From assembly GCA_038883795.1 (NCBI GenBank), contig JAVZLK010000002.1, positions 1 through 64,000 of the forward strand: a stretch of 64,000 bases of DNA. Reading direction: 5' to 3'. Below, piece after piece: positions 1,586 through 55,031 of the stretch. The notes under the pieces are model-generated. The model made no database searches. It had not been told where the DNA came from and saw nothing but the letters and a program-made list of their open reading frames with translations. The first letter of the stretch is position 1. The number at the start of each line of letters is the position of its first letter. A program made the position numbers and the translations under genes. The DNA is from Candidatus Bathyarchaeia archaeon. Its GTDB lineage: Archaea > Thermoproteota > Bathyarchaeia > Bathyarchaeales > Bathycorpusculaceae.

Positions 1586-2539
1586 TTAACATGGCTTCTT
1601 CAATAGCTTGTTACCTAGATTGTTAAGCATTCGATAATAGGCTTTTGTTTTTTCGTGAGCTAATTGTATTGTGATTTTGGAAAATTCTATGGTGTCGTTT
1701 GGTTTTGCTTGTCCAAGCATGGAAACGTCTGGTGTGATGGCTACGGCAATTTTTGGATAGCCGCCCGTTGTTTGGGCGTCCCGCATTATCACAATTGGTT
1801 TTCCACTTTTTGGGACCTGAATTGCGCCTGGCAGAAGGGCATCCGAAACTATGTCTGCTTTTGCTTTATGCTCTATTGTTGGTCCTTCAAGTCGGTATCC
1901 CATGCGGTCCGCTTCTGGTGTGACTTTATATGGGTTTGAAAGGAAGGTCTTTATCCCATTTTCTGTAAACATGTCGGCTTGCGGTCCCAATACAACATGA
2001 ACTGTGAATTTGCCCGTATATTGGGGTATCAACTCTTCCGGCATTAAATACTTAGTTTTAAGGGGTGAAGTGGCGAAGCCTTCAATTATATCTCCACTTT
2101 TTAATTGCTTGCCGTTGATGCCTCCAAACCCGCCACGCACATAGGTGGATCTGCTTCCAAGCACCAGCGGCGTGTTTATTCCGCCTCTCATGGAAAGGTA
2201 TGCTCGGCATCCGCTTTTCATCTTTCCAAAAGAGATTATGTCACCTGCTTTTACTCGTAATGTTTGCCACATGGGAACATTTTCGTCATTAATTTTTGGT
2301 TCTGCGTTTCCACCTGTTATTGCAATATAAGTTTTTGTTAGGGCTTTAAGTTCTGGACCTATTAGGGTTATTTCTAAACAAGCCTCATTTGGGTTGTTTT
2401 CAACCAAGAGGTTTGCTGCAGTTAGTGCGAATTGATCCATGGCGCCTGAAATTGGCACGCCATATTGTAGATAGCCGTATCTTCCTAAGTCTTGGACGGT
2501 TGTGAATAATCCTGGTTTTAAAACTTGAAAAACTTGCAT
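1586..2539 (-). CDS. pxpC: 5-oxoprolinase subunit C (KipA / allophanate hydrolase subunit 2 family)
   Basis: PGLFTTVQDLGR, GVPISGAMD, DRMGYRL, DAQTTGGYPKI. Confidence 0.9.
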   Translation of the reverse strand: MQVFQVLKPGLFTTVQDLGRYGYLQYGVPISGAMDQFALTAANLLVENNPNEACLEITLIGPELKALTKTYIAITGGNAEPKINDENVPMWQTLRVKAGDIISFGKMKSGCRAYLSMRGGINTPLVLGSRSTYVRGGFGGINGKQLKSGDIIEGFATSPLKTKYLMPEELIPQYTGKFTVHVVLGPQADMFTENGIKTFLSNPYKVTPEADRMGYRLEGPTIEHKAKADIVSDALLPGAIQVPKSGKPIVIMRDAQTTGGYPKIAVAITPDVSMLGQAKPNDTIEFSKITIQLAHEKTKAYYRMLNNLGNKLLKKPC

Positions 2540-3280
2540 TTACTCTTCCTCAAAAGTAGGTTTCCATTCGCCTTTTGAGACGGCTTTTTCAATTGTTTTG
2601 AATTCACTTTCAGAAATTGGTTTAAACTTCACAATATCTCCTGGTTTTAGCAATGTAGGCGGTTGCTGAAGTGGATTGAAGAGTTTAAGTGGTGTTCTGC
2701 CTATTATTCGCCATCCTCCTGGTGCTTCGCAAGGGTAAATTCCCGTCTGTTTTTCTGCAATGCCCACGGAGCCTGCTGGAACTTTTAGTCTTGGTGTTTC
2801 AAGGCGTGGTGTTGCAATTTTGTCTGGAACTTCTCCCAAATATGGAAAACCAGCAACGAATCCAATCATGTAAACCCTATATTCCTTTTCAGAATGCAAC
2901 TTCACAACCATTTCTTCGGTTATCCCATGATATTTGGCGACAAAGCCTATGTCTGGTCCATATTCTCCACCATAAACTACTGGAACAATTATTTTTCTTC
3001 CTCGAGTTTCTTTGGCAAATTTATCAAGGTTTTTCTCAATGTCTTTAATTTGGAATACGAGGTGCTCGTAAGTGGTTTCTAATGGGTTATAGCGGATTAG
3101 GAGAGAGCGGTATGTGGGAACGGTTTCTTCGACTCCCTTAATGTTGGCTTTTGAAACAGTATGGTTTAGGACTATGACTTTTTGGTTTGCTTCAAGACTT
3201 ATTACATTGCCAAACTCAACGACTAGGGCGCTGTCGCCGAAAGGCAAGTAACGGGCAGATTCGTAAATTTTCGCTTGCAT
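2540..3280 (-). CDS. pxpB: 5-oxoprolinase subunit B (KipI family)
   Basis: GDSALVVEFG, VPTYRSLL, YGGEYGPD, GFVAGFPYL, PGGWRIIGRTP. Confidence 0.9.
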   Translation of the reverse strand: MQAKIYESARYLPFGDSALVVEFGNVISLEANQKVIVLNHTVSKANIKGVEETVPTYRSLLIRYNPLETTYEHLVFQIKDIEKNLDKFAKETRGRKIIVPVVYGGEYGPDIGFVAKYHGITEEMVVKLHSEKEYRVYMIGFVAGFPYLGEVPDKIATPRLETPRLKVPAGSVGIAEKQTGIYPCEAPGGWRIIGRTPLKLFNPLQQPPTLLKPGDIVKFKPISESEFKTIEKAVSKGEWKPTFEEE

Positions 3281-3298
3281 TGCTAAACCTTAAAATTG

Positions 3299-4072
3299 TT
3301 AGATAAAGTTGCCAACAGCCGTAACTTCTACTCTAGACTTAACCAGTTCCTTTTTTAAAGTCTGTGTTAATTTTATGGCTGTTGGTGTATCGCCATGCAC
3401 GCAGATGGTATGCACTTTACCTAAGGTTATGGCTTCACCGTTGACACCCAACACTTTTCCTTCCTTTATCACTTTTATGGTTCTTTCGAGAACTGCGGAT
3501 GGCTCCATGATGATGGAGTTTGGTTGTTTTCTTGAGACGAGGCTTCCATCGGGGTTGTAAGCTCTGTCAGCAAAAAACTCGTAGGCAACACGTAATCCTG
3601 CATTGCTGGCGACCTTAGCTAAGATTGATTTTGGAGGAGCAAAAATTATGAGGTTTTTGTCTAACGCCTTAACTGCTTCCACTATTCCCCTGCTTGTTTC
3701 CTCATCTTTTACCGCTGTATTGTATAATGCTCCATGAGGCTTCACATGTTGAAGGTTTAAGCCACCTATTTTTGCGAACCCTTGAAGGGCGCTAACCTGA
3801 TAAATTGTATAGTTTTTGATTTCTTCCATGGTTAGGCGCATTTCTCTCCTTCCAAAACCCAGAAGGTCTGGATAACCCGGATGAGCGCCCACGGCAACAC
3901 CATGCTTTTTAGCTAATTTAATAGTTTTTGCCATCGTCAGCGGGTCGCCTGCGTGGAATCCGCAGGCTACGTTTGCAGATGTTATGTATGGCATTATTCC
4001 CATGTCGTTTCCGACTTTAAATGCTCCGTAGCTTTCGCCTAAATCACAGTTTATATCTATTTTTAGCGTCAA
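3299..4072 (-). CDS. pxpA: 5-oxoprolinase subunit A (LamB/YcsF)
   Basis: DINCDLGES, SANVACGFHAGDP, HVKPHGALYN, TICVHGD. Confidence 0.93.
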   Translation of the reverse strand: MTLKIDINCDLGESYGAFKVGNDMGIMPYITSANVACGFHAGDPLTMAKTIKLAKKHGVAVGAHPGYPDLLGFGRREMRLTMEEIKNYTIYQVSALQGFAKIGGLNLQHVKPHGALYNTAVKDEETSRGIVEAVKALDKNLIIFAPPKSILAKVASNAGLRVAYEFFADRAYNPDGSLVSRKQPNSIIMEPSAVLERTIKVIKEGKVLGVNGEAITLGKVHTICVHGDTPTAIKLTQTLKKELVKSRVEVTAVGNFI

Positions 4073-4092
4073 CTTTTATCACTCTAATAATT

Positions 4093-5124
4093 TTATAGTG
4101 AAACGTATTTTCTCATGTCTTCGACAGCAGCGGAAGGCACTGGCAAATCTTTCATTGTAAGCAAGCCCGGCGGCGCCTTAATCACTTTTGGAATCGCGTT
4201 AACCACCATTGCTACTGTGCCTATGTCACCGTGCACGCATGGCTGAATTTTCTGTTTTACGTTTGGGACCCCATAAATTGTTATGGCGTCATATTCCTCT
4301 TCTGCGCCTATGTAGGCTTGAAAATCGAGGATAATAACCTCCTTATTCTTGATTATGCCCTTTGCCTTTTGTCGTAAACCCGCTGTTTGTCCAGTCTTGA
4401 CTTTTATGTGTTCGCTTTCTACTGGTTTTTTGGCGATTACTGGTTCAACTGGCTCGGCTATTATTTTGTCAAGTTTCCATGCTAGGGCATCAGCTATTAA
4501 GGCAATAGACTGCTCAAGTCCCACATGTCCCGTAATTTGCTTGGTTTCAATCTTCTTCTGAAACTCTTCAAGGGTTAAGCCAGCTCCAATCTTTTTTTGG
4601 AATGGCAAGCGCCTGGTGGCTGCATTCATAACTCTTACTGCTTCAATTTTCTCTATTTTTTGGCAGACGGCCGTAAGCGTTATCACTAGAGTGTCCATTA
4701 GGAAACCCGGGTTTATGCCTGTGCCCAAAACAGTTGAGCCATGCTTTTTAGCAAGCGTATCTAGTTCTCTTGCCATTTTTGGTTCTGTATAATATGGGTT
4801 AGCTAGTTCTTCGCATGTGGATACTACTTTGACGCCGTGTTTTATGAGGGTGGCTAATTGTTGGTGTGTGTCTTTTAGAAAGGAGGAGGTTGCGTGGATG
4901 GCTATGTCCGGTTTGGCTTTTGAAAGAACCGCATCAACGTTGTCTGAAATTTTGACGCCGACTTTCTTGTTTATGCCTAAAACTTCCCCTAAATCTTTTC
5001 CAACCTTATCTTTGGCAACGTCGATGGCTCCGACTATTTCCACTCCTTCCTTTTCAAGCAAAAACTTTGCAATTAAACTGCCAACAGCCCCAACTCCGAA
5101 AATGGCAACTCTTACTTTTTTCAT
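4093..5124 (-). CDS. 2,4-diaminopentanoate dehydrogenase (Ord) / native amine dehydrogenase family, DapB-like Rossmann fold
   Basis: GVGAVG dinucleotide motif, VGKDLGE, STCEEL, LGTGINPGF, C-terminal GDIGT...NAIP...APPGL. Confidence 0.8.
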   Translation of the reverse strand: MKKVRVAIFGVGAVGSLIAKFLLEKEGVEIVGAIDVAKDKVGKDLGEVLGINKKVGVKISDNVDAVLSKAKPDIAIHATSSFLKDTHQQLATLIKHGVKVVSTCEELANPYYTEPKMARELDTLAKKHGSTVLGTGINPGFLMDTLVITLTAVCQKIEKIEAVRVMNAATRRLPFQKKIGAGLTLEEFQKKIETKQITGHVGLEQSIALIADALAWKLDKIIAEPVEPVIAKKPVESEHIKVKTGQTAGLRQKAKGIIKNKEVIILDFQAYIGAEEEYDAITIYGVPNVKQKIQPCVHGDIGTVAMVVNAIPKVIKAPPGLLTMKDLPVPSAAVEDMRKYVSL

Positions 5125-5274
5125 TTGTTAGTCTCCTTTTTCGTTTATCTTTATTGTTTTTATGTTTCTATAAATTTGTCTTGTGGGTTTGATGGTGTTT
5201 TATTAATGTTCAAAAACTTTACGTTTGTAAAGTTTATATCTTGGAGAAACCTCAATAGTAAAGAGGCATAGAGG

Positions 5275-6711
5275 TTGCAAACCACAGAAACCATAATCTC
5301 TAAGGAAAACCTCAAAAAACTCTTAGACATTGAAAAATTGAAATACTGCTTCGAATGTGGCATCTGTACAGCCAGCTGTCCCATGGCAGAACTCTTGGGA
5401 GCATCCTACAACCCCAGGGGGCTTTTGGAAAAAATTTTCTTGAATCCCGAAAGCGTTCTTAATTCTGATGAGCTTTGGCTTTGTGCTTGGTGTTACCGCT
5501 GTTATAGGCATTGTCCACAAGCGCTTAAAATACCAGAAATCCTTCTCTTCTTGCGGAGAACAGCTGTAGAACACGGAATTTTAGCGCCTCTTGAAAATGC
5601 TCTGCAAAAAATAGTTGAGAATGTTCCGCTTCCGCTTGCAACCACTTTGGTTTGCTATCATCCAGAACGTGTTGGAATGGATAAAGAGAAAATTCTTGAA
5701 AAAATTGAGCAAATGCGCCTTGAACGTTTAAAGAAGAGAAAAAGAGCAAGAGCAACAAAAGATTCTCAAAGAAAAATTGCTGTTATAGGTTCTGGACCCG
5801 CCGGTCTCACAGTTGCCTACCAACTAGCTCAGAAAAAATGTAAAGTTACGATTTTTGAAGCTCTTCCCGAGGCGGGCGGAATGTTGAGGAAATGTATTCC
5901 TGAGTATCGCTTTCCAAAGCAAGTTTTAGCCAAAGAAATCAATTTCCTAAAAGATTTGGGTGTGGAAATAAGGACTGGCGTAACTGTTGGTAAGGATTTG
6001 AGTTTTGAAGATTTATGGAATGAAGGTTACAAAGCCATTTTTATCGGTGTTGGTGCTCATGAAAGTCAAAAATTAAGAGTTGAAGGTGTAGATTTGGAAG
6101 GCGTAATTCACGCCCTCGACTTTTTATGGAAAGTTAACTGTGGCGAAAAAATGGAAATGGGAAAGAATATCGCCGTTATTGGTGGCGGAAACGTTGCAAT
6201 AGACGCTGCCAGAACCGCACTGCAAAATGGCGCAAAGGAAGCCACAATCTTCTATCGCAGGTCAAGAGAGGAGATGCCAGCAAATCCATGGGAAGTTAAA
6301 GAAGCAGAAGATGAAGGCGTAAAAATCGAGTTTTTGGTTGCTCCTAAAAGATTTTTGGGAAAAAATGGGAAGGTTTCATCCATCGAGTTTGTTCGCATGC
6401 AACTCGGCGAGCCAGACGAGTCTGGCAGAAGGAAACCCATTCCAATAGAAGGTTCAGAATTCACAAGGGAAGCTGATATGGTGATTTTGGCGATAGGCGA
6501 GACACCAAATTTGAAATTTTTGCCAAAAGAGATAATGTTAAATGATGATGGAACCGTTTGGGTTGACCCAATAACCATGGAAACAAGCTTGAAAGGGGTT
6601 TTCGCTGGAGGGGACGCTGCCACGGGTCCGGCAACGGTTATTGAGGCAATTAAAGCTGGAAAGCGTGCTGCAGAATCGATTGAAAACTACTTGGAATCTT
6701 TGGGAGGATAA
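5275..6711 (+). CDS. Fusion of an HdrC-like 2x[4Fe-4S] domain and a GltD/NfnB-like FAD/NAD(P)H oxidoreductase
   Basis: N-terminal CFECGICTASCP and LWLCAWCYRCYRHCP; then GSGPAG, IPEYR, GGGNVAID, YRRS, FAGGD. Confidence 0.85.
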   Translation: MQTTETIISKENLKKLLDIEKLKYCFECGICTASCPMAELLGASYNPRGLLEKIFLNPESVLNSDELWLCAWCYRCYRHCPQALKIPEILLFLRRTAVEHGILAPLENALQKIVENVPLPLATTLVCYHPERVGMDKEKILEKIEQMRLERLKKRKRARATKDSQRKIAVIGSGPAGLTVAYQLAQKKCKVTIFEALPEAGGMLRKCIPEYRFPKQVLAKEINFLKDLGVEIRTGVTVGKDLSFEDLWNEGYKAIFIGVGAHESQKLRVEGVDLEGVIHALDFLWKVNCGEKMEMGKNIAVIGGGNVAIDAARTALQNGAKEATIFYRRSREEMPANPWEVKEAEDEGVKIEFLVAPKRFLGKNGKVSSIEFVRMQLGEPDESGRRKPIPIEGSEFTREADMVILAIGETPNLKFLPKEIMLNDDGTVWVDPITMETSLKGVFAGGDAATGPATVIEAIKAGKRAAESIENYLESLGG

Positions 6712-6715
6712 TGGC

Positions 6716-9124
6716 ATGGCTGAAGGTGAAATCCGCATCGGAGTTTATGTTTGCCACTGCGGCTTAAACATAGCTGGCTCCGTAGACTGCGAAGAAGTGG
6801 CAAAATACGCGGCAACCCTTCCTCATGTTGTTTTAGCAAAAGACAACCGTTACACATGCTCAGACCAAGGACAAGAAATGATAAAGAACGACATTAAAGA
6901 ACACAGGCTTAACCGTGTGGTTGTAGCTTCATGTTCGCCAAGGCTTCATGAACCCACCTTTAGAAAAACATGCGAAGATGCTGGTTTGAACAAGTATCTT
7001 TTTGAAATGGCTAACATACGCGAGCAGTGCAGTTGGGTGCATCTGCATGATCGGAAGGCTGCTACTGAAAAGGCTAAGGATCTTGTGAAGATGGTTGTGG
7101 CTAAGGCTGCTTTGCTTCAACCCGCAGAAGAAATTGAGGTGCCAATTATTCGGGAAGCCCTTGTGATTGGTGGTGGAGTGGCTGGCATCCAAGCGGCTTT
7201 GGATTTGGCTGATACCGGTTATAAAGTCTATTTAGTTGAGAAGGAGCCAAGCATCGGTGGGATGATGGCACGTATTGACAAGACTTTTCCAACGATGGAC
7301 TGTTCCATTTGTATTCTTGCGCCTAAAATGTCTGATGTTGGGCATCATCCAAACATTGAACTGTTAACCAATAGCGAAGTTATGGATGTGAAAGGGTACA
7401 TTGGCAACTTTAACGTTAAAGTTTTGAAAAAACCACGCTACGTCAAAAGTGACTGTTCAGCATGCGGAGAATGCTCAAAGGTTTGTCCAGTAATCGCTCC
7501 AAACGAGTTTGACGCTGGATTAGCTATAAGACATGCCATTTACACACCCTTCGCCCAAGCAGTTCCATCCACATACATAATTGACATGAGCAGATGCCTC
7601 AACAAAGACGGAGTAACCGTCTGCGACAAATGCATAAAGGCTTGCGAAAGACAAGCCATAGACTTTGACATGAAACCAGAAACCATAGAACTTAAAGTCG
7701 GAACAATAATAGTAGCCATAGGCGCAGATGTCTTCGACCCCTCTGTCTTACCGAATTATGGGTATGGAAAATACTCGAACGTGATAACGTCTCTTGAATT
7801 TGAAAGATTAATAAATGCTGGCGGTCCTTCGGGCGGGCATCTTATAAGACCAAGCGATATGCAAATTCCCCAACGGGTAGCTTTCATCCAATGTGTCGGT
7901 TCCCGTTCAGATAGAAATGGAAGACTATATTGCAGTAACGTTTGCTGCATGAACACAATAAAAGATAGCCTCCTCATTAAGGAGCATTGGCCTGAAACAG
8001 AAATTTACGTTTTTTACGTTGACATAAGGGCTTATGGAAAAGGTTTTGAAGACCTATACAAGCGTGCAAAAAAGGAAGGCGTCATATTCATCAGAGGGCT
8101 TCCAGCAGAGATAATAGAAGACAGAAAAACTCATAATTTGTGGCTCATCGGCGAAAACACGCTTCAGAAAGAGCTATACAAAATCAATGTTGACATGGTA
8201 ATTCTTTCGGTTGGTTTGGAGCCGAGAAAAGACAGTGAAATCATCCAGCGTTTGCTAACATTATCAAGAACTCAAGACGGCTTCTTTATGGAGGCGCATC
8301 CAAAACTTAGACCAGTAGACGCTGCCACTGGCGGAATATTCTTTGCTGGATGTGCTGAAGCGCCTAAAGACATAAAGGACAGCGTAACACAAGCAAGCGC
8401 CGCCGCTGCTAGAGCTGGCATTTTAATGGCTAAGGGAAAAGTGACTGTTGAAGCCATAACGCCAATTTCCTATGCCGATAAGTGTAAGGCTTGCGGGCTT
8501 TGCACAAAAGTTTGTCCCTATAATGCTATAACATTAAACAAGGAGTTAAAGCGCATTGAGATTATTGAGGCTGCTTGTGGCGGATGTGGAACTTGCGCTG
8601 CAGAATGTCCTTTTGATGCTTTAACCCAAAATCACTTTACTGATGAACAAATCTTAGCGCAGATAGATGCTGTAACGGAAGTTAATGCTGAAAAGAAAAT
8701 TGTTGCCTTCTGCTGTAACTGGTGCGCCTATGCTGGCGCAGACTTTGCTGGCGTAAGCCGAATGCAATATCCGCCCAACGTGCGAATAATAAGGACCATG
8801 TGTTCTGGACGGGTGGCTCCAAAATTCATAGAAAGAGCCTTTGCAAGGGGAGCCGCAGCCGTTTTAGTAGCTGGCTGTCATCCTGGAGACTGCCACTACA
8901 TAAATGCCAATTATCATACTAAAAGGCGTGTGGAACGTTTCTGGGAGAAAATGGAGAAAAATGGACTGAACAAGGAAAGGTTGCAGTTGTTGTGGGCTTC
9001 GGCGGCTGAAGGCGAAAGATTTGCTTCAAAAATCCGTGAAATGCAAGCCATAGTGGAAAAAGTGACCAGAGAAGAGATAGAAAATGGCAAAAGAGTTTTT
9101 GAAAAAGCCTTAGGTGGGAGTTAG
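6716..9124 (+). CDS. hdrA: Heterodisulfide reductase subunit A fused to MvhD
   Basis: GVYVCHCGLNI, SCSPRLHE, GGGVAG, DKTFPTMDCSICIL, QCVGSR, C-terminal ferredoxin, then MvhD motifs FCCNWCAYAGAD, MCSGRV, GCHPGDCHY. Start moved to ATG 6716 after GGAGG. Confidence 0.92.
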   Translation: MAEGEIRIGVYVCHCGLNIAGSVDCEEVAKYAATLPHVVLAKDNRYTCSDQGQEMIKNDIKEHRLNRVVVASCSPRLHEPTFRKTCEDAGLNKYLFEMANIREQCSWVHLHDRKAATEKAKDLVKMVVAKAALLQPAEEIEVPIIREALVIGGGVAGIQAALDLADTGYKVYLVEKEPSIGGMMARIDKTFPTMDCSICILAPKMSDVGHHPNIELLTNSEVMDVKGYIGNFNVKVLKKPRYVKSDCSACGECSKVCPVIAPNEFDAGLAIRHAIYTPFAQAVPSTYIIDMSRCLNKDGVTVCDKCIKACERQAIDFDMKPETIELKVGTIIVAIGADVFDPSVLPNYGYGKYSNVITSLEFERLINAGGPSGGHLIRPSDMQIPQRVAFIQCVGSRSDRNGRLYCSNVCCMNTIKDSLLIKEHWPETEIYVFYVDIRAYGKGFEDLYKRAKKEGVIFIRGLPAEIIEDRKTHNLWLIGENTLQKELYKINVDMVILSVGLEPRKDSEIIQRLLTLSRTQDGFFMEAHPKLRPVDAATGGIFFAGCAEAPKDIKDSVTQASAAAARAGILMAKGKVTVEAITPISYADKCKACGLCTKVCPYNAITLNKELKRIEIIEAACGGCGTCAAECPFDALTQNHFTDEQILAQIDAVTEVNAEKKIVAFCCNWCAYAGADFAGVSRMQYPPNVRIIRTMCSGRVAPKFIERAFARGAAAVLVAGCHPGDCHYINANYHTKRRVERFWEKMEKNGLNKERLQLLWASAAEGERFASKIREMQAIVEKVTREEIENGKRVFEKALGGS

Positions 9125-9126
9125 CT

Positions 9127-9405
9127 ATGCCCGTTAGACTTTGGCGCAAACCATTAGACACTGAAAAATTGAAGCTTCCAAAAGCCGAAATCCACATACT
9201 AAAAGACCAGTGTAAAGGATGCGGCTTCTGCATCCATTTCTGTCCCAAAAAAGTTTTGGAAGAATCTGAAGAAATAAATGCTAGAGGTGTTCATCCTCCA
9301 AAGATCGTTGATGAAAGCAAGTGCATCATTTGTAGTTTTTGCACTTCAGTTTGTCCAGACTTCGCAATTTTTGTTGTTGAAAAACCATGTAAAGAGGGAT
9401 GTTAA
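9127..9405 (+). CDS. korD: 2-oxoacid:ferredoxin oxidoreductase delta subunit (2x[4Fe-4S] ferredoxin)
   Basis: CKGCGFCIHFCP and CIICSFCTSVCPDFAI; directly upstream of alpha subunit. Confidence 0.85.
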   Translation: MPVRLWRKPLDTEKLKLPKAEIHILKDQCKGCGFCIHFCPKKVLEESEEINARGVHPPKIVDESKCIICSFCTSVCPDFAIFVVEKPCKEGC

Positions 9406-9407
9406 AT

Positions 9408-10559
9408 ATGAGTAGAAAAGGAGTAATCCTTGAAGGCAGCCACTTCATGAATGGCGACATTGCATGCGCAGAAGGCGCCATAGCCGCTGGTTGCAGATTC
9501 TTTGCTGGTTATCCAATAACGCCGGCAACAGAAATCGCTGAACACTTAGCTCAGCGCATGCCTGAAGTTGGCGGAATATACATTCAAATGGAAGATGAAA
9601 TAGCCTCCATCGCAGCAGTTATAGGCGCATCCTATGCAGGCTTAAAAGCTATGACAGCTACTTCCGGACCAGGTTTTAGTCTCATGCAAGAAAATATAGG
9701 TTTGGCTGTGATGACAGAAGCTCCATGCGTGATTGTGGATGTTATGCGTGGCGGACCCAGCACTGGACAACCAACATTGCCCGGACAGCAGGATGTTATG
9801 CAAGCTAAATGGGGTTCCCATGGAGATTACGAAATCATAGCTTTAGCGCCTTCTTCTGTTCAAGAAATGTTCGACTTAACCATTGAAGCCTTTAACTTGT
9901 CTGAAACTTACAGGGTTCCAGCAATAGTTTTGGCTGACGAGGTGGTTGGGCATATGTGGGAGAAGGTTGTGATTCCTCCTGCTGAAAAGATAAGAATTGT
10001 GAACCGAAAGAAGGCGAATGTTCCGTCGGAAGCTTATGCTCCGTTTATGCCTGATGATGATTTGGTTCCGCCCATGGCATGTTTTGGAGAAGGCTACAGC
10101 TTTCATGCTACTGGCTTGACGCATGATGAGTATGGTTATCCCCAAACATCCAGTTCCGAGGCTCAGCAAAAACTTGTGCAAAGATTATGCGATAAGATTA
10201 GGAAAAATGCGGATAAAATAATTAGAGTTGAAGAGGTTATGCTAGACGATGCCGATATGGTGGTTGTAGCTTATGGAATAGTTGCCAGAGCCGCACTCAG
10301 TGCTGTAAGAAAGGCTAGAGCAGAGGGAATAAAAGCTGGGCTTCTACGCCCAATCACTTTGTGGCCTTTCCCAGAAAAATATGTGGCAAAAATAGCCAAA
10401 CAAGCAAAAGCCATAGTGGTTCCAGAAATGAACTGTGGCCAACTGGTGCGTGAAGTGGAGAGGGCAGCAAAGGAAACACCCGTTGCTTTTCTTTCCAAGT
10501 TGGGAGAGGAACCTCACACGCCTATGGAGATTCTTGAGACAATAAGGAGGAATAGCTAA
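9408..10559 (+). CDS. korA: 2-oxoacid:ferredoxin oxidoreductase alpha subunit
   Basis: FFAGYPITPATE, QMEDE, TSGPGFSLM, MRGGPSTG, EMNCGQ; substrate not established. Confidence 0.88.
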   Translation: MSRKGVILEGSHFMNGDIACAEGAIAAGCRFFAGYPITPATEIAEHLAQRMPEVGGIYIQMEDEIASIAAVIGASYAGLKAMTATSGPGFSLMQENIGLAVMTEAPCVIVDVMRGGPSTGQPTLPGQQDVMQAKWGSHGDYEIIALAPSSVQEMFDLTIEAFNLSETYRVPAIVLADEVVGHMWEKVVIPPAEKIRIVNRKKANVPSEAYAPFMPDDDLVPPMACFGEGYSFHATGLTHDEYGYPQTSSSEAQQKLVQRLCDKIRKNADKIIRVEEVMLDDADMVVVAYGIVARAALSAVRKARAEGIKAGLLRPITLWPFPEKYVAKIAKQAKAIVVPEMNCGQLVREVERAAKETPVAFLSKLGEEPHTPMEILETIRRNS

Positions 10560-11398
10560 TGGAAACTATGATGGCGCATCCTTTTGCAAAATATTTACGA
10601 GAAGCCATGATGCCCCACATATGGTGTTCAGGCTGCGGTAACGGCATAATCCTAAACTGTTTTGTTCAAGCCGTGGACGAGCTGCAAATGGACCTTAACA
10701 AGCTTGTGGTTGTTTCTGGCATTGGCTGCATTGGAAGGGCAGCCGGATACGTCAACACAAACTCTTTTCACACCACTCATGGGCGCCCAATAGCCTTTGC
10801 CACTGGAGTAAAATTGGCAAATCCAGAGCTTGAAGTGGTGATTATAAGCGGTGATGGGGACCTCTTCGCCATAGGGGGAAACCACTTCATACATGCGGCT
10901 CGAAGAAACATTGGAATCAAAGTTATCTGTGCAAACAATTTCAATTATGGAATGACTGGGGGACAGCAAGGACCTACAACACCGCTTGAGGCTTTAACAA
11001 CCACAACCCCTTACGGAAACATTGAACACCCTTTTAATTTAGTGCATTTGGCAGCAGCATCAGGCGCTACTTATGTGGCTAGGTGGACAACTTTGCATGT
11101 GCGAAGGCTTACCCAATCCATCAAAAAATTGTTACAGAAGGAAGGTTTTGGGTTTATTGAAGTTGTTTCGCCATGTCCAGAAATCTTCGGTCGCCACAAT
11201 AAGATGCGAACTGGGCTTGAGATGATGGAATGGTTTAGAAAAGTTTCCACAATAGAAAACTTTTCCGACCCAGCGAAAGCAGAAATTACTCCAGAAAAAA
11301 TTGTCGTTGGAGAGTTTGTTGATATAGCAAAGGTTAGTTATGAAAAGCTGGTTCATGAAAAAATCGCTGAAATTAATGAAAAGAAAATGCAATGGTGA
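10559..11398 (+). CDS. korB: 2-oxoacid:ferredoxin oxidoreductase beta subunit
   Basis: WCSGCG, SGIGC, HGR, TPP motif GDGD...NN, GMTGGQ, SPCP. Confidence 0.88.
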   Translation: METMMAHPFAKYLREAMMPHIWCSGCGNGIILNCFVQAVDELQMDLNKLVVVSGIGCIGRAAGYVNTNSFHTTHGRPIAFATGVKLANPELEVVIISGDGDLFAIGGNHFIHAARRNIGIKVICANNFNYGMTGGQQGPTTPLEALTTTTPYGNIEHPFNLVHLAAASGATYVARWTTLHVRRLTQSIKKLLQKEGFGFIEVVSPCPEIFGRHNKMRTGLEMMEWFRKVSTIENFSDPAKAEITPEKIVVGEFVDIAKVSYEKLVHEKIAEINEKKMQW

Positions 11399-11403
11399 TT
11401 TAA

Positions 11404-11949
11404 ATGCGAATTGAAATTAGGTTTGCGGGTTTCGGCGGGCAAGGCATAATCAAATCTGGAATAATCACAGCTACAGCAGCATGCATCTACAGTGGAAAAA
11501 ATGCCGTTCAAACCCAATCTTACGGTCCAGAATCAAGGGGTGGAGCATGCAAATCCGAAGTTGTAATTTCAGAAGAGGAAATAGACTTTCCAAAGGTTGT
11601 TGAACCAGAAATCCTTGTAGTTATGTCTCAGCATGCCTACAATGAATATGCAGAAAACGTGAAAACAGGCGGCACAATAATCTTGGACCCAGACATGGTT
11701 CCCCACGAAAAAGAGCTGAAAAACGTCAAAGTCTTCAAAGTTCCAGCCACAAGAATTGCTGAAGAGCTAGGAAGGAAGATAGTTGCAAACATTGCCATGT
11801 TAGGCGCTTTTGTGGCTATCACTGGAGTTTTGGATAATGAGGCCGTTAAAGAATCCATTAAAGTAAATGTGCCAAAGGGTACTGAAGAACTGAATTTGAA
11901 AGCTTTTGAGAAAGGATACGAATACGGCAAAAACCTGTTGAAAAGTTAG
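11404..11949 (+). CDS. korC: 2-oxoacid:ferredoxin oxidoreductase gamma subunit
   Basis: AGFGGQG, QSYGPESRGG, ANIAMLGA, NLKAFEKG. Confidence 0.88.
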   Translation: MRIEIRFAGFGGQGIIKSGIITATAACIYSGKNAVQTQSYGPESRGGACKSEVVISEEEIDFPKVVEPEILVVMSQHAYNEYAENVKTGGTIILDPDMVPHEKELKNVKVFKVPATRIAEELGRKIVANIAMLGAFVAITGVLDNEAVKESIKVNVPKGTEELNLKAFEKGYEYGKNLLKS

Positions 11950-34472: not shown

Positions 34473-35342
34473 GTGAAGGTCAGCAAAAACTTTTCAGCAA
34501 AAAGCGTGGCTTTAATTGTTTGCTTTACAGGTCTCTACACAATTTCTGGCTTCGTATCCCTTTCTCCAATAATTGGTTTGCCGGGCAAAACCATAACGGC
34601 AGCTGCAATAATGGCACCCGTGATCGGCATAATCCTTGGACCATATATAGGCGCAGTATCCACGGTTTTAGGCGGAATTATTCCCTTTTTTACTGGCGCT
34701 TTTTCTCCTCCAAGTTTAGTTTCTGGTACTGTTACAACTTTTTGTTCCGGCATGCTTTGTCTTCAAAAGCGAAGCCTCTGCATCTTTACTTATTTCTCAT
34801 TGCTGTTTCTTTTTGGTTTCTACCCTTTTGTTGGTCCTTTTTGGCTTTATCCTCCATTAATGTGGTTTCAAATAGTTGGTTTTCTCCTTCTCATTTCGCC
34901 ATTACAATCCAAAGCCGTCAAAAATTTGAACTCTGAGAGCGTTTCGAAACTTTTTCAAACTTTTTTCATAACTCTCCTTACATCAACTTTGGCTGGCCAA
35001 ATCGCTGGTTCTTTAGTTTTTGAAGTTCTTGCTTGGCCTGTTTTTATGGCAGATTTGAATGGTTGGAGGGCCACGTGGCAATTTTTAACATTCATTTACC
35101 CTGTTGAACGGATACTTATCGCATTAATGGGAACGTTTATTGGGATAACTTTACACAAAATTCTAAAGTCTGCAAATTTAAATTTCCTTCTTAATTCTTC
35201 GCTTGGCAAGAAAGGTGCCCATGAAAATGCACTCTTTCGATGGTATGGTCATTTCTGCAGAACCGTAAACGCCATTATTAAAGTCCACAATAGCACCCCT
35301 AATAATCACCAGAGGAGTTTTTTCGGCCGCTTCTCCCATTAG
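34473..35342 (+). CDS. Integral membrane protein, ECF S-component-like
   Basis: Multiple TM helices; AP..GI.LGP..G motif and late YPVER; 3' end overlaps cofE by 165 nt. Confidence 0.6.
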   Translation: MKVSKNFSAKSVALIVCFTGLYTISGFVSLSPIIGLPGKTITAAAIMAPVIGIILGPYIGAVSTVLGGIIPFFTGAFSPPSLVSGTVTTFCSGMLCLQKRSLCIFTYFSLLFLFGFYPFVGPFWLYPPLMWFQIVGFLLLISPLQSKAVKNLNSESVSKLFQTFFITLLTSTLAGQIAGSLVFEVLAWPVFMADLNGWRATWQFLTFIYPVERILIALMGTFIGITLHKILKSANLNFLLNSSLGKKGAHENALFRWYGHFCRTVNAIIKVHNSTPNNHQRSFFGRFSH

Positions 35343-35960
35343 AAAATGTGCTGCAGAAGCCAAATCATCAGCCACCGCATGTTGCGTGATGATTATCCGC
35401 TTTTCGTAAATGTCCTTTTCTCCTCTTCTATCTTTTATTGGTTTGAAACCGGCCACCGCCAAAGCCAAACCAACAGTACCCTTTCTAAGCGGTGCTAAAC
35501 CGCTGTCAACAATTAAAACACCCACACGCTTACCCGTCTTATTTTTAATTTCATCTCTTACGTATCTTGCCCATTTTTGAGGGTTGCTTGACCACAAAAC
35601 TACATGATCTATGGGAGCATTTTTGTTGTCTATTCCCGCATTAGCGGTTAAAATTCCATTTTTAAGTGTCAAAACAGCCTTTTCAACCCCTCCATAAATT
35701 TTGTCCGCTTCCCTTAAAATTAGCTCTGCGAAAGGTGGTTGCAGAGAAAAGCGTTTCGCTAACTCTTTTGCTTTTTCTGAGGGTTTAATTTCGCTCAATT
35801 TCACGAGGCGATTTTCTGCATAAGCAACAACCTTCGATGTTAAAGCTATTATGTCTTTGTCCTCAAGCTCTAAACCTTGTCTCTTTATAGCGTCAAGAAT
35901 AAACTCCACCAAGTTATCGCCAATACTGATAACCTTTGTTTTAACGGCATAAAGCCTCAA
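35178..35960 (-). CDS. cofE: Coenzyme F420:L-glutamate ligase family
   Basis: SKVVAYAE, ANAGID..N, I.DS...PLR.G..G.A, D.RG..D, ADDLASAA..MGE. Confidence 0.85.
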   Translation of the reverse strand: MRLYAVKTKVISIGDNLVEFILDAIKRQGLELEDKDIIALTSKVVAYAENRLVKLSEIKPSEKAKELAKRFSLQPPFAELILREADKIYGGVEKAVLTLKNGILTANAGIDNKNAPIDHVVLWSSNPQKWARYVRDEIKNKTGKRVGVLIVDSGLAPLRKGTVGLALAVAGFKPIKDRRGEKDIYEKRIIITQHAVADDLASAAHFLMGEAAEKTPLVIIRGAIVDFNNGVYGSAEMTIPSKECIFMGTFLAKRRIKKEI

Positions 35961-51134: not shown

Positions 51135-54100
51135 ATGCTTAGGATAGGCGTTTACGTTTGCCACTGTGGCTTAAACATTGCTGGCGTGGTTGATGTAGAG
51201 AAAGTGGCTGAATACGCTGGGAAATTGCATGATGTTGTGGTGGCTAAGCATTATGTTTACATGTGTTCTGAAACTGGACAGCGCATGATTAAAGAAGACA
51301 TTAAGGCACATAATCTTGACAGGATAGTTATCGCCACATGTTCGCCGAGGATGCATGAAGAAACCTTCCGCAAAACTGTTGCTGAAGCAGGCTTAAATCC
51401 TTACTTGCTTGAAATCGTCAATTTAAGAGAGCACGTCTCGTGGGTTCACAGCGAAGAGCCAGAAAAAGCTACAGAAAAGGCGAAAGACCTTGTGAGGGTG
51501 GGTGTAGCCCGTGCGAGATTTTTAGAGCCCTTACAAAGAAGTAAAGTGCCTGCTGAGAAGAGTGTTTTAGTTTTGGGCGGTGGAATAGCGGGAATACAAG
51601 CAGCCCTTGATTTAGCCAATGCGGGCTTGAAGGTTTTTTTGGTGGAGAAGTCTCCAAGCATTGGCGGAAAAATGGCTTTACTTGACAAGACATTTCCAAC
51701 CCTTGATTGTAGTGCATGTATATTAACGCCAAAAATGACCGAAGTGGCAAGGCATCAAAATATACAATTGATAACTTGTGCAGAAGTGGAAAACGTATCG
51801 GGTTTTGTAGGCAACTATGAAGTCTCTATAATAAAAAACCCGAGATATGTGGACGAAGCTAAATGCACAGGTTGTGGCGAATGCGAAAAGGTATGCCCAG
51901 TTGCATTACCGAACGAGTTTGAATTGAAGCTTGCCGAAAGAAAAGCCATTTACAGACCCTACCCCCAAGCAGTTCCAAACGTTTACACCATAGACAAAAA
52001 GGGCACAGCCCGCTGCAGAGCCGCTTGTCCAGCAGGCGTAAACGCTCAAGGCTACGTTGCCCTTATAGCAAAGGGAAAATTCAAAGAAGCCTACGAGTTA
52101 ATTAGAAAAGCCATACCATTCCCCGCGGTTTTGGGAAGAGTTTGTTTTCACCCATGCGAGAACGACTGTGAAAGGGGCGATGTTGAGGAGCCAATTGCAA
52201 TTTGCGCCCTAAAACGTTATGTTGCAGATTACATGATGAGACAACCCCAAGAGAAGCCTACTCGAATTCCACCAAAATATGAAGAAAAAATTGCTGTAAT
52301 AGGTGCGGGTCCAGCGGGGTTAACTGCAGCTTACGAATTAGTTAGAATGGGTTATTCAGTAACAGTTTTTGAGGCTTTGCCAGAACCAGGCGGCATGTTA
52401 AGGATAGGCATACCAGAATATAGGCTTCCAAAAAAGATTTTGGCGAAAGAAGTTGAATATTTGGAAAGTTTAGGTGTTCAAATTCGCACTAATGTAACTA
52501 TTGGTAAAGATTTAAGTTTTGAAGATTTGAATAAAATGGGGTATAAGGCAGTTTTCTTAGCCGTTGGCATGCAAAAAAGCCTAACATTAGGCATTGAAGG
52601 AGAAGAATTACAAGGCGTTTTTCAAGGCGTCGAATTCTTAAAAAATGTGAATTTGGGTAAAAAAGTTGAAGTCGGAGAACGTGTCGCCGTAATAGGCGGT
52701 GGAAACGTCGCTATTGACGTTTCAAGAGTTGCATTACGGTTAGGCGCCAAAAAAGTTTACATTCTGTACAGAAGGTCAAGAGAAGAAATGCCCGCATTCC
52801 AACCAGAAGTTGAGCAAGCAGGAAAGGAAGGTGTTGAATTTCTCTTCCTCAAAGCGCCTAAAAGAATCATCGGCGAAAATGGCAGGGTTGTCGCTGTTGA
52901 ATGTTTTGAAATGATGCTCACCGAACCAGATGAAACAGGAAGAAGAAAACCAGTTCCTATCGAAGGTTCAGAACATGTAATTCCAGTGGACACAGTTATC
53001 ACAACCATAGGTCAAGCTTTAGATGTGGCTTCTCTACCGAAAGGGTTGAAGCTGAACCATGGCACAATAGAAGTTGACCCCAAAACTCTTCAAACAAACA
53101 TACCCAACATATTTGCAGGTGGAGACGCAGTTTTGGGTCCAGCCACAGTTATCGAAGCAGTAGCAGCTGGGAAAAGAGCGGCAATTTCCATCCACAAATA
53201 CTTACGGGGCGAAGACTTGAAAGCTATTGAAGAGGAAGAGCTGCCTCCAGTTAAGATATCGCCTAAAATAGGCATTGAGAAAAAGAAAAGGCAAGCCATG
53301 CCTCTTCTGCCAGTTGAAGAAAGAATTAGAAGTTTTGATGAGGTTGAGTTGGGCCTTAGCGAAGAAATGGCTATCGAAGAAGCGAAACGTTGTCTTGCTT
53401 GTGGCGGCTGCTCCGAATGCCTAGAGTGCGAAAAGATATGTGAAGCAAAGGCAATTGACCACAAACAAAGGCTTCAAAGAATAAACGTGAAAGTTGGTGC
53501 AATAATAATTGCCACTGGAAGCGAACTTTTCGATGCCTCAAAAATCCAAGAATACAGTTTCGGAAAATCCAAAAACATAATCACAAACCTCCAATTTGAA
53601 AGACTATGCAATGCTTCTGGACCCACAAGCGGAAAAATCCTTTGCCCACAAAACGGCAAAACACCAAAAGCCGTGACTTTCATCCAATGTGTAGGTTCAA
53701 GGGATTCGAGGTTTCATGAATATTGTTGTCGTATCGGTTGCATGGCAACATTAAAGCAAGCAATCCTCACTCGAGAAAAACTTGGCAAGGAGGTGGATAT
53801 TTATGTTTGTTTTAATGACATGCGGGCTTTTGGTAAGGGTTATGACGAGTTTTATGGGCGAGCAAGAGAAATGGGCATAAACTTTGTCGCTGGCTTGCCC
53901 TCCGAAATCCGCTGCGCCTCTGATGGTTCGCTTTACTTTGACGTTTATGATAAGGGAACAAACAAGCTCTTAGAACTGCGTTCAGACCTTGTTGTGCTTG
54001 CCAGCGGGCTTGTCCCTAACAGCGACTTGGGAAAAATAAGCAGCATATTCCATGTTTCAAGAAGCGCCGATGGCTTCCTATTAGAAGCCCATCCGAAACT

Positions 54101-54518
54101 TCGCCCTCTGGAAAGTGCAATAACTGGAATTTTCATTGCTGGCACATGCCAAGGTCCAAAAGATATCCCCGATACTGTGGCTCAAGCAAGTGGGGCAGCA
54201 GCAAAAGCCATAGACCTTTTGGCAAGTGGGGAGATTGAGCTTGAACCATTGAAAGCAGTTGTTGACGAAGACTTATGCAGTGGCTGTCGCCTTTGCGAGG
54301 CAATATGCCCATTTGTTGCCATAGAGATGAAAACTGAAACTTTGGATGGTGCTGAAAGGGTTAGGGCTGAGGTTGTAGAAGCCATGTGTCAAGGCTGTGG
54401 TTTATGCGTTTCAGCTTGTCCCACTAAGGCTATTATAATGCGCCATTACACTGATGAGCAATTCCTTGCGCAGGTTAAGGCTGCATGTTTAGAAACGGAA
54501 GCCCTTGGAGGTGGCTAA
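51135..54518 (+). CDS. HdrA with inserted GltD/NfnB-like NAD(P)H oxidoreductase module (HdrL-type)
   Basis: HdrA N-terminus (VCHCGLNI, DKTFPTLDCSACIL); insert CRAACP, GRVCFHPCENDC, GAGPAG, GGGNVAID, EAKRCL; then QCVGSRD, GTCQGPKDI, C-terminal ferredoxin. Confidence 0.9.
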   Translation: MLRIGVYVCHCGLNIAGVVDVEKVAEYAGKLHDVVVAKHYVYMCSETGQRMIKEDIKAHNLDRIVIATCSPRMHEETFRKTVAEAGLNPYLLEIVNLREHVSWVHSEEPEKATEKAKDLVRVGVARARFLEPLQRSKVPAEKSVLVLGGGIAGIQAALDLANAGLKVFLVEKSPSIGGKMALLDKTFPTLDCSACILTPKMTEVARHQNIQLITCAEVENVSGFVGNYEVSIIKNPRYVDEAKCTGCGECEKVCPVALPNEFELKLAERKAIYRPYPQAVPNVYTIDKKGTARCRAACPAGVNAQGYVALIAKGKFKEAYELIRKAIPFPAVLGRVCFHPCENDCERGDVEEPIAICALKRYVADYMMRQPQEKPTRIPPKYEEKIAVIGAGPAGLTAAYELVRMGYSVTVFEALPEPGGMLRIGIPEYRLPKKILAKEVEYLESLGVQIRTNVTIGKDLSFEDLNKMGYKAVFLAVGMQKSLTLGIEGEELQGVFQGVEFLKNVNLGKKVEVGERVAVIGGGNVAIDVSRVALRLGAKKVYILYRRSREEMPAFQPEVEQAGKEGVEFLFLKAPKRIIGENGRVVAVECFEMMLTEPDETGRRKPVPIEGSEHVIPVDTVITTIGQALDVASLPKGLKLNHGTIEVDPKTLQTNIPNIFAGGDAVLGPATVIEAVAAGKRAAISIHKYLRGEDLKAIEEEELPPVKISPKIGIEKKKRQAMPLLPVEERIRSFDEVELGLSEEMAIEEAKRCLACGGCSECLECEKICEAKAIDHKQRLQRINVKVGAIIIATGSELFDASKIQEYSFGKSKNIITNLQFERLCNASGPTSGKILCPQNGKTPKAVTFIQCVGSRDSRFHEYCCRIGCMATLKQAILTREKLGKEVDIYVCFNDMRAFGKGYDEFYGRAREMGINFVAGLPSEIRCASDGSLYFDVYDKGTNKLLELRSDLVVLASGLVPNSDLGKISSIFHVSRSADGFLLEAHPKLRPLESAITGIFIAGTCQGPKDIPDTVAQASGAAAKAIDLLASGEIELEPLKAVVDEDLCSGCRLCEAICPFVAIEMKTETLDGAERVRAEVVEAMCQGCGLCVSACPTKAIIMRHYTDEQFLAQVKAACLETEALGGG

Positions 54519-54520
54519 AT

Positions 54521-55030
54521 TTGGGCTTGACTGATTTGATGTCTATGGCTAAATCAAACGCAGAAGCCCGCGAAAAAATCTTGTCAAAACTTGGTGGAAA
54601 AGAGCTTGTCAACTGTTTTCAGTGTATGAAGTGTACAAGTGGATGCACCGCCCTAAAACTTTTGGAGTTAAAACCTCATGAGATTGTGAAACTCGTGAAT
54701 TTGGGCTTTGTTGATGAGTTGACGGCTTCCGACATAATTTGGACTTGCGCCACATGCCTAAAATGTGTTGAGCGGTGTCCCCAAAAGGCTTCCCCCTACC
54801 ATGTGATTATCGCATTGCGAAATCTTGCAGTTGAGAGAGAGACCAAAGTGCCAGAAGGATATTTGAAAGCTGTTTCGCAAATTCTTGAGACGGGTTTAGC
54901 GGAAACTGTTCAAAAAGTTGTGACGAAAAAAATGGAGACTTTTGACCGTGAAAACCTAAAACTGCCAAAAATTACTCTACCTAAAGAAGGTTTTCAATCT
55001 GCTTTTATGAAAATGCTGGAGGAGAAATAA
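54521..55030 (+). CDS. hdrC: Heterodisulfide reductase subunit C-like
   Basis: CFQCMKCTSGC, IWTCATCLKCVERCP; TTG 54521 after GGAGGTG. Confidence 0.88.
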   Translation: MGLTDLMSMAKSNAEAREKILSKLGGKELVNCFQCMKCTSGCTALKLLELKPHEIVKLVNLGFVDELTASDIIWTCATCLKCVERCPQKASPYHVIIALRNLAVERETKVPEGYLKAVSQILETGLAETVQKVVTKKMETFDRENLKLPKITLPKEGFQSAFMKMLEEK

Positions 55031-55031
55031 A

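Follow-up and report, generated by a model that had tools for sequence, protein, structure and literature searches.

In complexes built on HdrA, electrons take three paths, through MvhD, through HdrC and through a ferredoxin domain inserted in HdrA. HdrC, which binds HdrA and is supplied with electrons by its C-terminal ferredoxin domain, carries electrons from the flavin side of HdrA to HdrB, and to our knowledge the HdrC arm terminates at the HdrB site in all characterised complexes with a full-length HdrA. Here we describe an operon in which HdrC is found in another setting. It lies in a 64,000-nucleotide (nt) stretch of a Candidatus Bathyarchaeia archaeon genome (assembly GCA_038883795.1, contig JAVZLK010000002.1, positions 1 to 64,000 of the forward strand; the whole stretch is called the window below). 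The operon consists of six + strand open reading frames (ORFs) with near-zero spacing, from 5275 to 11949. The first encodes a hybrid of an HdrC-type head and a GltD/NfnB-type body, the second an HdrA2-MvhD fusion, and the last four (korD, korA, korB, and korG) a 2-oxoacid:acceptor oxidoreductase (Kor).

The closest described systems are the methanogen complexes MvhAGD-HdrABC and Fdh-/Elp-Hdr(-Fwd) (5ODC, 7BKB, 8RVU). Their HdrA and MvhD are collinear with those of the window, the HdrC fold and both of its cluster motifs are common to the two, and in both a ferredoxin-dependent enzyme that releases or fixes CO2 is encoded alongside. In contrast to the methanogen complexes, the window operon has no HdrB or disulfide site, its HdrC part and an FAD/NADP(H) protein form a single polypeptide, its MvhD is fused to HdrA, there is no hydrogenase or formate dehydrogenase in the operon, and Kor replaces Fwd. 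The HdrA-MvhD fusion is also found in HdrA2B2C2 of Methanosarcina acetivorans; there the partner of HdrA2 is HdrB2C2, with the heterodisulfide as acceptor and F420H2 as donor (PMC5296606), whereas the partner in the window operon is the HdrC-GltD hybrid.

GltD/NAD(P)H modules joined to HdrA have been published in other topologies (PMC12054007, PMC9012536, PMC2702500, PMC9430772). In the passages of these papers that concern the module, the type III HdrA of ANME-1 and Bathyarchaeota, HdrL of sulfate reducers, and the giant HdrA of Moorella thermoacetica have a GltD/NfnB-type module joined to the HdrA system, as here. In those systems GltD lies inside HdrA or is fused to it and keeps its own Fe-S domain, and both HdrB and HdrC are present. 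In the operon described here, in contrast, GltD is on a separate polypeptide with HdrC in the place of its Fe-S domain, and there is no HdrB. In sequence and fold (Z 31-34), the hybrid is best matched by NfnB/NfnL and the NfnL-like domain of NfnABC/Stn (5JCA, 4YLF, 9N5U, 9BOV, 8OH5), which have the same FAD and NADP(H) folds. Unlike NfnB, the hybrid has lost the motif of the non-Cys-ligated proximal cluster and has an HdrC-like head, and it has no adjacent NfnA/PyrK-type partner; no such [2Fe-2S] FAD subunit is found in the operon. The joining of GltD to HdrA is itself already known. In the literature searched, we found no paper on a stand-alone HdrC-GltD subunit replacing HdrBC beside HdrA2 and Kor, though an earlier mention may exist.

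The operon and its HdrC-GltD hybrid subunit

The six genes of the operon are as follows.

5275 to 6711, + strand: HdrC-GltD hybrid subunit of 478 aa, in which an NfnB/GltD-type FAD/NADP(H) body carries a dicluster head of the HdrC type (profiles, PDB matches, conservation, fold)
6716 to 9124, + strand: HdrA2-MvhD fusion, 802 aa (NF040770 above cut-off, 5odc_A, 5odc_D)
9127 to 9405, + strand: KorD, delta subunit with two [4Fe-4S] clusters (OGOR_delta, E 1.2e-18, below cut-off)
9399 to 10559, + strand: KorA, alpha subunit of the 2-oxoacid:acceptor oxidoreductase (NF006412, 596.7 bits, cut-off 411)
10559 to 11398, + strand: KorB, beta subunit, which binds thiamine pyrophosphate (profile matches)
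11404 to 11949, + strand: KorG, gamma subunit (NF006323, 255 bits, cut-off 235)

The intergenic distances are, in order, 4, 2, -7, -1, and 5 nt. The hybrid ORF starts with TTG, with GAGG 8 nt upstream, and stops with TAA at 6709-6711, 4 nt before the ATG of HdrA2-MvhD at 6716; the GGAGG ahead of this ATG is inside the 3' end of the hybrid gene. HdrA2-MvhD ends at 9124 and korD begins at 9127. korD and korA overlap by 7 nt and korA and korB by 1 nt, and korG follows korB after 5 nt. In a profile search of the genome contigs, neither the CCG/HdrB domain nor a [NiFe] hydrogenase large subunit had a match within 5275-11949. KorA and KorG score above the curated cut-offs. KorD is nearest to the 2-oxoglutarate type yet below the cut-off, and the Kor substrate is probably 2-oxoglutarate.

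HdrA2-MvhD passes the HdrA2 model NF040770 (1281.4 bits against a cut-off of 1100, covering residues 7-788). Its HdrA part (residues 5-653) is collinear with the solved bifurcating HdrA 5odc_A (E 6.5e-257). Its MvhD domain spans residues about 656-802 (nt 8681-9124), with FlpD covering residues 662-782 and a match to 5odc_D over residues 659-781 (E 1.2e-43). This domain is strongly conserved, with 72-97% identity across the loci compared. Mean column identity is 85% for HdrA2-MvhD (37 sequences) and 53% for the hybrid (52 sequences).

The following features are found within the hybrid.

5347 to 5379, + strand: cluster motif A, C25-x2-C28-x2-C31-x3-C35, followed by P (invariant in 52/52 sequences and in 56/56 heads plus HdrC proteins)
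5482 to 5517, + strand: cluster motif B, C70-x2-C73-x2-C76-x3-C80-P81 (profiles, 5odc_C, conservation)
5626 to 5664, + strand: relic of the second GltD Fe-S motif, PLPLATTLVCYHP, residues 118-130 (sequence, conservation)
5788 to 5805, + strand: FAD dinucleotide fold G172-S-G-P-A-G177 (G172, G174, P175, A176, and G177 invariant; Pyr_redox_2)
6181 to 6261, + strand: NAD(P)H fold, G303-G-G-N-V-A308 through Y327-R-R329 (5jca_L alignment, conservation)

That the head is of the HdrC type is well supported by profile, solved-chain match, and fold. Residues 23-114 match HdrC TIGR03290 (E 1.4e-21; profile positions 2-92 of 144), with a whole-protein score of 77 bits that is under the curated cut-off of 160, and residues 19-106 match the solved HdrC 5odc_C (E 4.1e-19). 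All eight Cys of motifs A and B are invariant in the 52 aligned homologues. When the head was modelled by itself with AlphaFold2 (predicted local distance difference test, pLDDT, 92.5) and compared with 48,161 chains, the top two were HdrC: 7bkb_C (Z 10.1, root-mean-square deviation, rmsd, 2.7, 94 aligned) and 5odc_C (Z 9.7). RnfC (Z 6.5) and the Fe-S subunits of succinate/fumarate reductases (Z about 6) come next, and GltD and NfnB reach only Z 5.5 and 5.3.

The rest of the protein is of the GltD/NfnB type. Residues about 75-475 match the GltD/NfnB models, e.g., PRK12771 (E 8.7e-110) and Pyr_redox_2 PF07992 (E 1.6e-34), so that the HdrC and GltD profile matches overlap from motif B to about residue 114. 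The E-values of all these domain matches are far past chance level; the equivalog models stay under their curated cut-offs, with 306 against 471.75 bits for gltA TIGR01316 and 368 against 516 bits for PRK12771. The best solved relatives over residues about 165-475 are the NfnL-like modules of NfnABC and NfnI (E 8.7e-97 to 6.6e-78). Superposed on NfnI-L (5jca_L), the whole-protein AlphaFold2 model (pLDDT 91.9, predicted template modelling score 0.91; like the head model, it contains no cofactors) gives Z 34.1 and rmsd 3.2 with 394 residues aligned. The superposition covers model residues 8-475, and therefore the head sits at the place of the NfnB Fe-S domain beside the FAD domain.

The Fe-S domain of GltD itself, PF14691 (Fer4_20), has no match to the hybrid at E <= 0.01. 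The paralog at 51135 does have a match, in its GltD insert (E 3.8e-20), and so does a bacterial relative, L080 (E 5.9e-21). The sole remnant of this domain in the hybrid is the relic, VC[FY]HPER (PLPLATTLVCYHP), where the paralog has PFPAVLGRVCFHPCENDC. Of the C...C-E..C ligand set of the paralog and the bacterial relatives, the relic keeps C127 alone (retained in at least 90% of the sequences); two Cys and the Glu are lost. The paralog reads CRAACP...PFPAVLGRVCFHPCENDC and the hybrid CYRHCP...PLPLATTLVCYHPERVG, and the two are collinear downstream of 'CP'. This alignment suggests that in the archaeal form the second HdrC motif was joined to the GltD chain just past the first GltD motif, and that the remaining GltD ligands then decayed, leaving two canonical clusters. 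An earlier note on this DNA had described an HdrC-type head with two [4Fe-4S] clusters in place of the N-terminal clusters of GltD/NfnB, with only a relic of these left, in a gene preceding HdrA-MvhD and Kor in an operon without hdrB or mvhAG. This description is confirmed.

The second dinucleotide fold indicates which nucleotide may be bound. Its pattern is GGGNVA ... YRRS. G303-305 and A308 show no variation, Y327, R328, and R329 are found in at least 90% of the sequences, and the pattern aligns with the same pattern in the NADP(H)-bound NfnI-L (5jca_L). GXGXXA versus GXGXXG is given as a criterion for NADP versus NAD in the relevant part of PMC12054007. With moderate confidence, the hybrid is therefore predicted to use NADP(H).

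Conservation of the operon and origin of the fusion

Among the 120 top database matches, 117 align over 99% or more of the hybrid, with identities of 71-95%. By the names of the database matches, the best of which is 95% identical, the window belongs to Bathyarchaeia. Species-representative genomes yielded 140 relatives, and 80 loci were retained; synteny was examined by tblastn with the window proteins, and 70 of the loci have the stand-alone archaeal form. The fusion could have been an assembly chimera. This is ruled out because the fusion is conserved across genomes, as seen in the 117 full-coverage proteins and in an intact gene on dozens of independent contigs. An apparent N-terminal truncation in one relative (L088) is a masked stretch of sequence and not biology.

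HdrA2-MvhD (at least 70% identical) lies on the same strand within 300 nt downstream of the hybrid in 63 of the 70 archaeal-type loci, and the two are separate ORFs as in the window. Three loci (L047, L054, and L055) have HdrA2-MvhD divergent upstream. Two loci are without DNA downstream, and one of them, L045, shows the divergent form. Another two are without HdrA2-MvhD: L044 has other HdrA types and hdrCB, and L049 has none. The pairing thus holds in 66 of the 68 evaluable archaeal loci. All four kor genes are present in 43 of the 44 loci with at least 3 kb past MvhD, the sole exception being the Hadarchaeota-labelled L056, and korD is present in six of seven loci with partial room (exception, L018). 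hdrB is not adjacent in 68 of the 70 loci, the exceptions being L019 and L044. The lack of hdrB and mvhAG in the operon is consistent across genomes.

In the Hadarchaeota-labelled locus (L056:4481-14471), Mtd and Ftr genes come before the pair, and genes of the formylmethanofuran dehydrogenase type come after it, replacing Kor. Formylmethanofuran dehydrogenase likewise depends on low-potential ferredoxin. In L019:3560-9850, the gene immediately upstream of the hybrid-HdrA2-Kor operon is a second HdrA-MvhD (788 aa). Divergent from it are the genes of a fumarate-reductase-like flavoprotein and of a CCG-domain (HdrB/TfrB-like) protein. Such a fumarate-reductase-like neighbour is found only in this one of the 70 loci; in some genomes these neighbours could be a source of a high-potential acceptor. 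Two contigs with bacterial labels, L014 (Krumholzibacteriaceae) and L043 (Anaerolineales), contain the bathyarchaeal-type operon in full, and their HdrA is 81-82% identical to that of the window. They are probably misbinned.

By sequence, the head of the hybrid is closest to genuine bathyarchaeal HdrC. Its nearest free-standing relatives (about 52% identical) are HdrC genes immediately upstream of hdrB in other Bathyarchaeia. For example, in another family of the class (L086:5999-7341, L087:6080-7410) a free-standing HdrC about 52% identical to the head is followed by HdrB, and this hdrC-hdrB pair adjoins a second hdrCB pair plus a tandem hdrA with mvhD. The head was searched for in 201 sampled genomes of the class. 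A match at E <= 1e-25 is present in 24 of them, this genome included; it lies in a frame of 451-515 aa in 14 genomes and of 162-250 aa in 10. Two of the small-frame cases were inspected, and both are HdrC genes with hdrB immediately after.

HdrC-headed GltD proteins are also found in bacteria. In three contigs of the Desulfobacterota type (L077, L079, and L080), a protein of about 580 aa is encoded immediately downstream of HdrA-MvhD. It shares with the archaeal hybrid the HdrC-type head, the GltD body, and the adjacency to HdrA-MvhD. Unlike the hybrid, it has a complete GltD Fe-S domain (PF14691) and a C-terminal extension, and there is no Kor nearby. Its HdrC head is accompanied by about 21 additional residues that contain the first GltD motif, and the second motif is intact. 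In L067, L068, and L074, the head, a thioredoxin-reductase piece, GltD, and HdrA are all in one giant gene, which resembles the HdrL and Moorella type as described in parts of PMC2702500 and PMC9430772. A quick tree was made from 35 of 82 GltD cores (15 chosen archaeal loci and all special cases), unrooted and with Shimodaira-Hasegawa-like approximate likelihood ratio support only. The archaeal hybrids form one group (support 96) and the bacterial HdrC-headed proteins a separate long branch (support 100). A single origin of the archaeal and bacterial fusions is not supported by this tree: the two groups are not sisters in it, implying that the fusions may be independent in origin.

Possible electron routes and alternative readings

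From the domain content and neighbourhoods described above, the six genes may encode an HdrA complex without HdrB. HdrA2-MvhD would carry the electron-pair-splitting flavin and a full set of Fe-S domains. The hybrid would dock at the HdrC site of HdrA and make NADP(H) the end of the HdrC arm. The two HdrC-type [4Fe-4S] clusters of the head would then link the HdrA flavin to the hybrid's own FAD and not to the disulfide site of HdrB, and this FAD would exchange hydride with NADP(H). NfnL-like modules turn the hydride of NADPH into single electrons. Kor would oxidise a 2-oxoacid, probably 2-oxoglutarate, and its low-potential electrons would enter the ferredoxin arm of HdrA via KorD or ferredoxin; Kor could also withdraw electrons from this arm. 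A third partner, encoded outside the operon, would dock at the conserved MvhD domain. Candidates for it are an Mvh-type hydrogenase, F420, and an Hdr/fumarate-reductase-like module. The result would be an energy-coupled three-way complex, with confurcation or bifurcation among NADP(H), the Kor/ferredoxin pool, and the third partner. We prefer this reading tentatively, as plausible rather than probable.

The contact between the hybrid and HdrA is suggested by their conserved adjacency and the HdrC ancestry of the head, and confurcation or bifurcation by the collinearity of HdrA with a solved bifurcating HdrA. The direction of electron flow, the use of NADP over NAD, the docking on HdrA, and the coupling are all predictions. 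Parts of two papers describe similar arrangements: the NfnL-like domain in NfnABC is a non-bifurcating NADPH input module (PMC12018979), and Hdr is physically wired to Fwd and takes interchangeable input modules (PMC13518236). The Fwd-Hdr wiring and the Hadarchaeota locus are analogous to a link from Kor to the ferredoxin arm, and such a link is proposed here because of them. The earlier note had proposed a heterodisulfide-independent bifurcating or confurcating complex. Its premises, HdrC ancestry and a link to HdrA, are upheld by sequence, fold, and synteny; the coupling is a suggestion, and the idea is less novel than it might seem.

Several observations weigh against the coupled three-way complex. 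A bifurcating HdrA complex is expected to have three redox partners (of low, middle, and high potential), and those identifiable here are NADP(H) and Kor/ferredoxin; none of the 70 loci has a third redox module inside the operon. The head is without the last third of HdrC (profile positions 93-144 unmatched), and the hybrid could act with ferredoxin alone because ferredoxin binds to the equivalent Fe-S domain in NfnB. The distribution of the hybrid in the class is patchy, since only 14 of the 201 sampled genomes have fusion-size frames, and the genome already carries a canonical nfnAB (contig C5). The candidate partners found elsewhere in the genome are not linked to the operon. Both mvhGA pairs of contig C5 are in clusters with their own hdrA, mvhD, and hdrCB, and cofH and cofD were not found in this 87% complete genome, so that F420 biosynthesis looks incomplete. 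Two CofE (F420 glutamyl ligase) homologues score above the cut-off (window 35274-35933, - strand, and C3:94334-95080), and Mtd gave no tblastn match with one query. F420 as the third substrate is neither supported nor excluded by these searches. A [NiFe] large subunit is present in 10 of 12 other fusion-carrying genomes, the two without it being 77-78% complete, and this distribution does not discriminate for or against H2 as the third substrate.

The same complex may also be uncoupled. HdrA2-MvhD would then be a plain flavin/Fe-S wire from Kor, or from ferredoxin, to the hybrid, with the net reaction 2-oxoacid + CoA + NADP+ -> acyl-CoA + CO2 + NADPH, or with the activity of a ferredoxin:NADP+ oxidoreductase. 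In the 44 loci with room, the operon encodes just two substrate-binding modules (Kor and the NADP(H) site) in 43, as a wire would have it. Azoarcus KGOR and phenylglyoxylate dehydrogenase are examples of 2-oxoacid oxidoreductases that depend on NAD(P)+ and have an additional flavoprotein, and weak NCBIfam Pad matches are found among the profiles of the operon proteins. Also, purified HdrA2 of M. acetivorans alone has a two-substrate ferredoxin:F420 activity, according to the portion of PMC5296606 that deals with it. However, a full-length HdrA with every domain of the bifurcating enzymes and an MvhD conserved at 72-97% identity exceeds the needs of a wire, NfnB-like proteins already carry their own ferredoxin-facing clusters, and about 150-200 mV would be lost. 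An uncoupled wire is hence possible but rather unlikely. Alternatively, Kor could dock at MvhD as the donor of electron pairs, which HdrA would split to NADP+ (via the hybrid, uphill in potential) and to free ferredoxin, driven below about -600 mV and well under the 2-oxoacid couple. In reverse, NADPH and reduced ferredoxin would power the reductive carboxylation of succinyl-CoA. Apart from the hybrid and HdrA2-MvhD, the operon encodes no redox enzyme but Kor, a partner is needed at the MvhD domain, and the operon and free ferredoxin together would fill all three arms of HdrA; a similar logic has been proposed for class II benzoyl-CoA reductase. Docking of Kor at MvhD is nevertheless improbable, as no sequence feature points to a KorD-MvhD link and no acceptor requiring such low potentials has been identified, and in the solved methanogen supercomplexes, as presented in a part of PMC13518236, Fwd is on the low-potential arm and not at MvhD.

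Two further readings were considered. If the hybrid were independent of HdrA, it would act on its own as an NfnB-like ferredoxin:NADP(H) oxidoreductase, with an Fe-S domain that differs only in having canonical ligands, and its adjacency to hdrA would be co-regulation only. Its AlphaFold2 model is indeed compact and NfnB-like, with the head at the usual position of the Fe-S domain, and the head is distantly related in structure to the Fe-S domains of NfnB and GltD (Z 5.3-5.5). We strongly doubt this reading: the head is specifically HdrC-like and HdrC is the subunit that binds HdrA, the next start codon is 4 nt from the hybrid stop, and the pairing with HdrA-MvhD is found in 66 of 68 evaluable archaeal loci and also in bacterial contigs with otherwise different neighbours. 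The hybrid could instead be an extra HdrC for a distant HdrB, e.g., the one at 55032, giving a disulfide reductase with NADP(H) input. A profile search found 13 CCG-domain matches in at least six genes of the genome, and L019 has an adjacent CCG protein and fumarate-reductase-like flavoprotein. Against this, the three separate HdrB genes that were examined all have an hdrC of their own upstream, the head is without the last third of the HdrC profile, and hdrB is not adjacent in 68 of 70 loci. The HdrB at 55032 is in an hdrA(type III)-hdrC-hdrB operon of its own. A role with a distant HdrB is thus highly improbable.

If the complex exists, the operon encodes an HdrA system whose high-potential arm terminates at a pyridine nucleotide, and the known modularity of flavin-based electron bifurcation is widened. 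One enzyme would join amino-acid carbon (2-oxoglutarate), NADPH, and ferredoxin, next to genes acting on oxoproline and ornithine. If Kor docks at MvhD instead, this would be a disulfide-independent HdrA bifurcation with a carbon substrate as electron-pair donor, and Bathyarchaeia could obtain electrons of very low potential without using H2. In anoxic sediments, Bathyarchaeia rank among the most abundant archaea. The re-oxidation of ferredoxin in their peptide fermentation is acknowledged as a gap (PMC9534799). The operon is a concrete target for expression and assay.

Surrounding genes and other redox loci of the genome

The following features are found upstream of the operon and, further away in the window, at a separate Hdr locus.

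1586 to 2539, - strand: PxpC of the 5-oxoprolinase type, divergent neighbour
2540 to 3280, - strand: PxpB of the 5-oxoprolinase type, divergent neighbour
3299 to 4072, - strand: PxpA of the 5-oxoprolinase type, divergent neighbour
4093 to 5124, - strand: 2,4-diaminopentanoate dehydrogenase, divergent neighbour
5125 to 5274, no strand: intergenic region from which the dehydrogenase gene (-) and the operon (+) diverge, read from sequence
51135 to 55901, + strand: separate Hdr locus, hdrA(type III)-hdrC-hdrB (profiles, sequence comparison)

The intergenic region has an AT-rich, TATA-like TTTATAT at 5233-5239 and GAGG at 5263-5266; the region of the TTTATAT may be the promoter of the operon. The sequencing runs containing the window DNA are hot-spring metagenomes. 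Two of them are labelled metatranscriptomic and are probably DNA, and they yielded mixed-strain contigs of 200-400 nt that are uninformative on transcripts. The dehydrogenase and pxpABC genes (1586-5124, - strand) are context and are outside the complex. The dehydrogenase gene adjoins the operon divergently in 37 of the 57 loci with room upstream, and these divergent genes are a hint of a tie to the breakdown of ornithine, proline, and glutamate.

In the genome as a whole, the profile search that gave the 13 CCG matches also gave three [NiFe] large subunits and eight MvhD matches. The CCG and [NiFe] matches sit outside the operon, at C2:55038-55742 and on contigs C5, C9, C16, and C26. A second Kor set is found at C2:71249-73172. 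The type III HdrA at 51135 has 1127 aa, with a GltD insert that lies between residues about 300 and 750 of HdrA, and an acyl-CoA dehydrogenase gene (56350-57567) comes after the hdrA-hdrC-hdrB genes. This cluster is without mvhADG, which a part of PMC12054007 places in the bathyarchaeotal type III cluster.

Contig C5 (L081 and L082) has a redox island of about 40 kb, which includes nfnAB, thioredoxin reductase, a TfrB-like protein, three further HdrA genes (one of them a tandem HdrA of 1006 aa), two mvhGA pairs, and gcvH. Two gene clusters are found in it, mvhGA-hdrA(mvhD)-hdrCB and gcvH-gltD-mvhD-hdrA(tandem)-mvhD-hdrCB-mvhGA. The island also encodes a GltD of 570 aa with a C-terminal ferredoxin.

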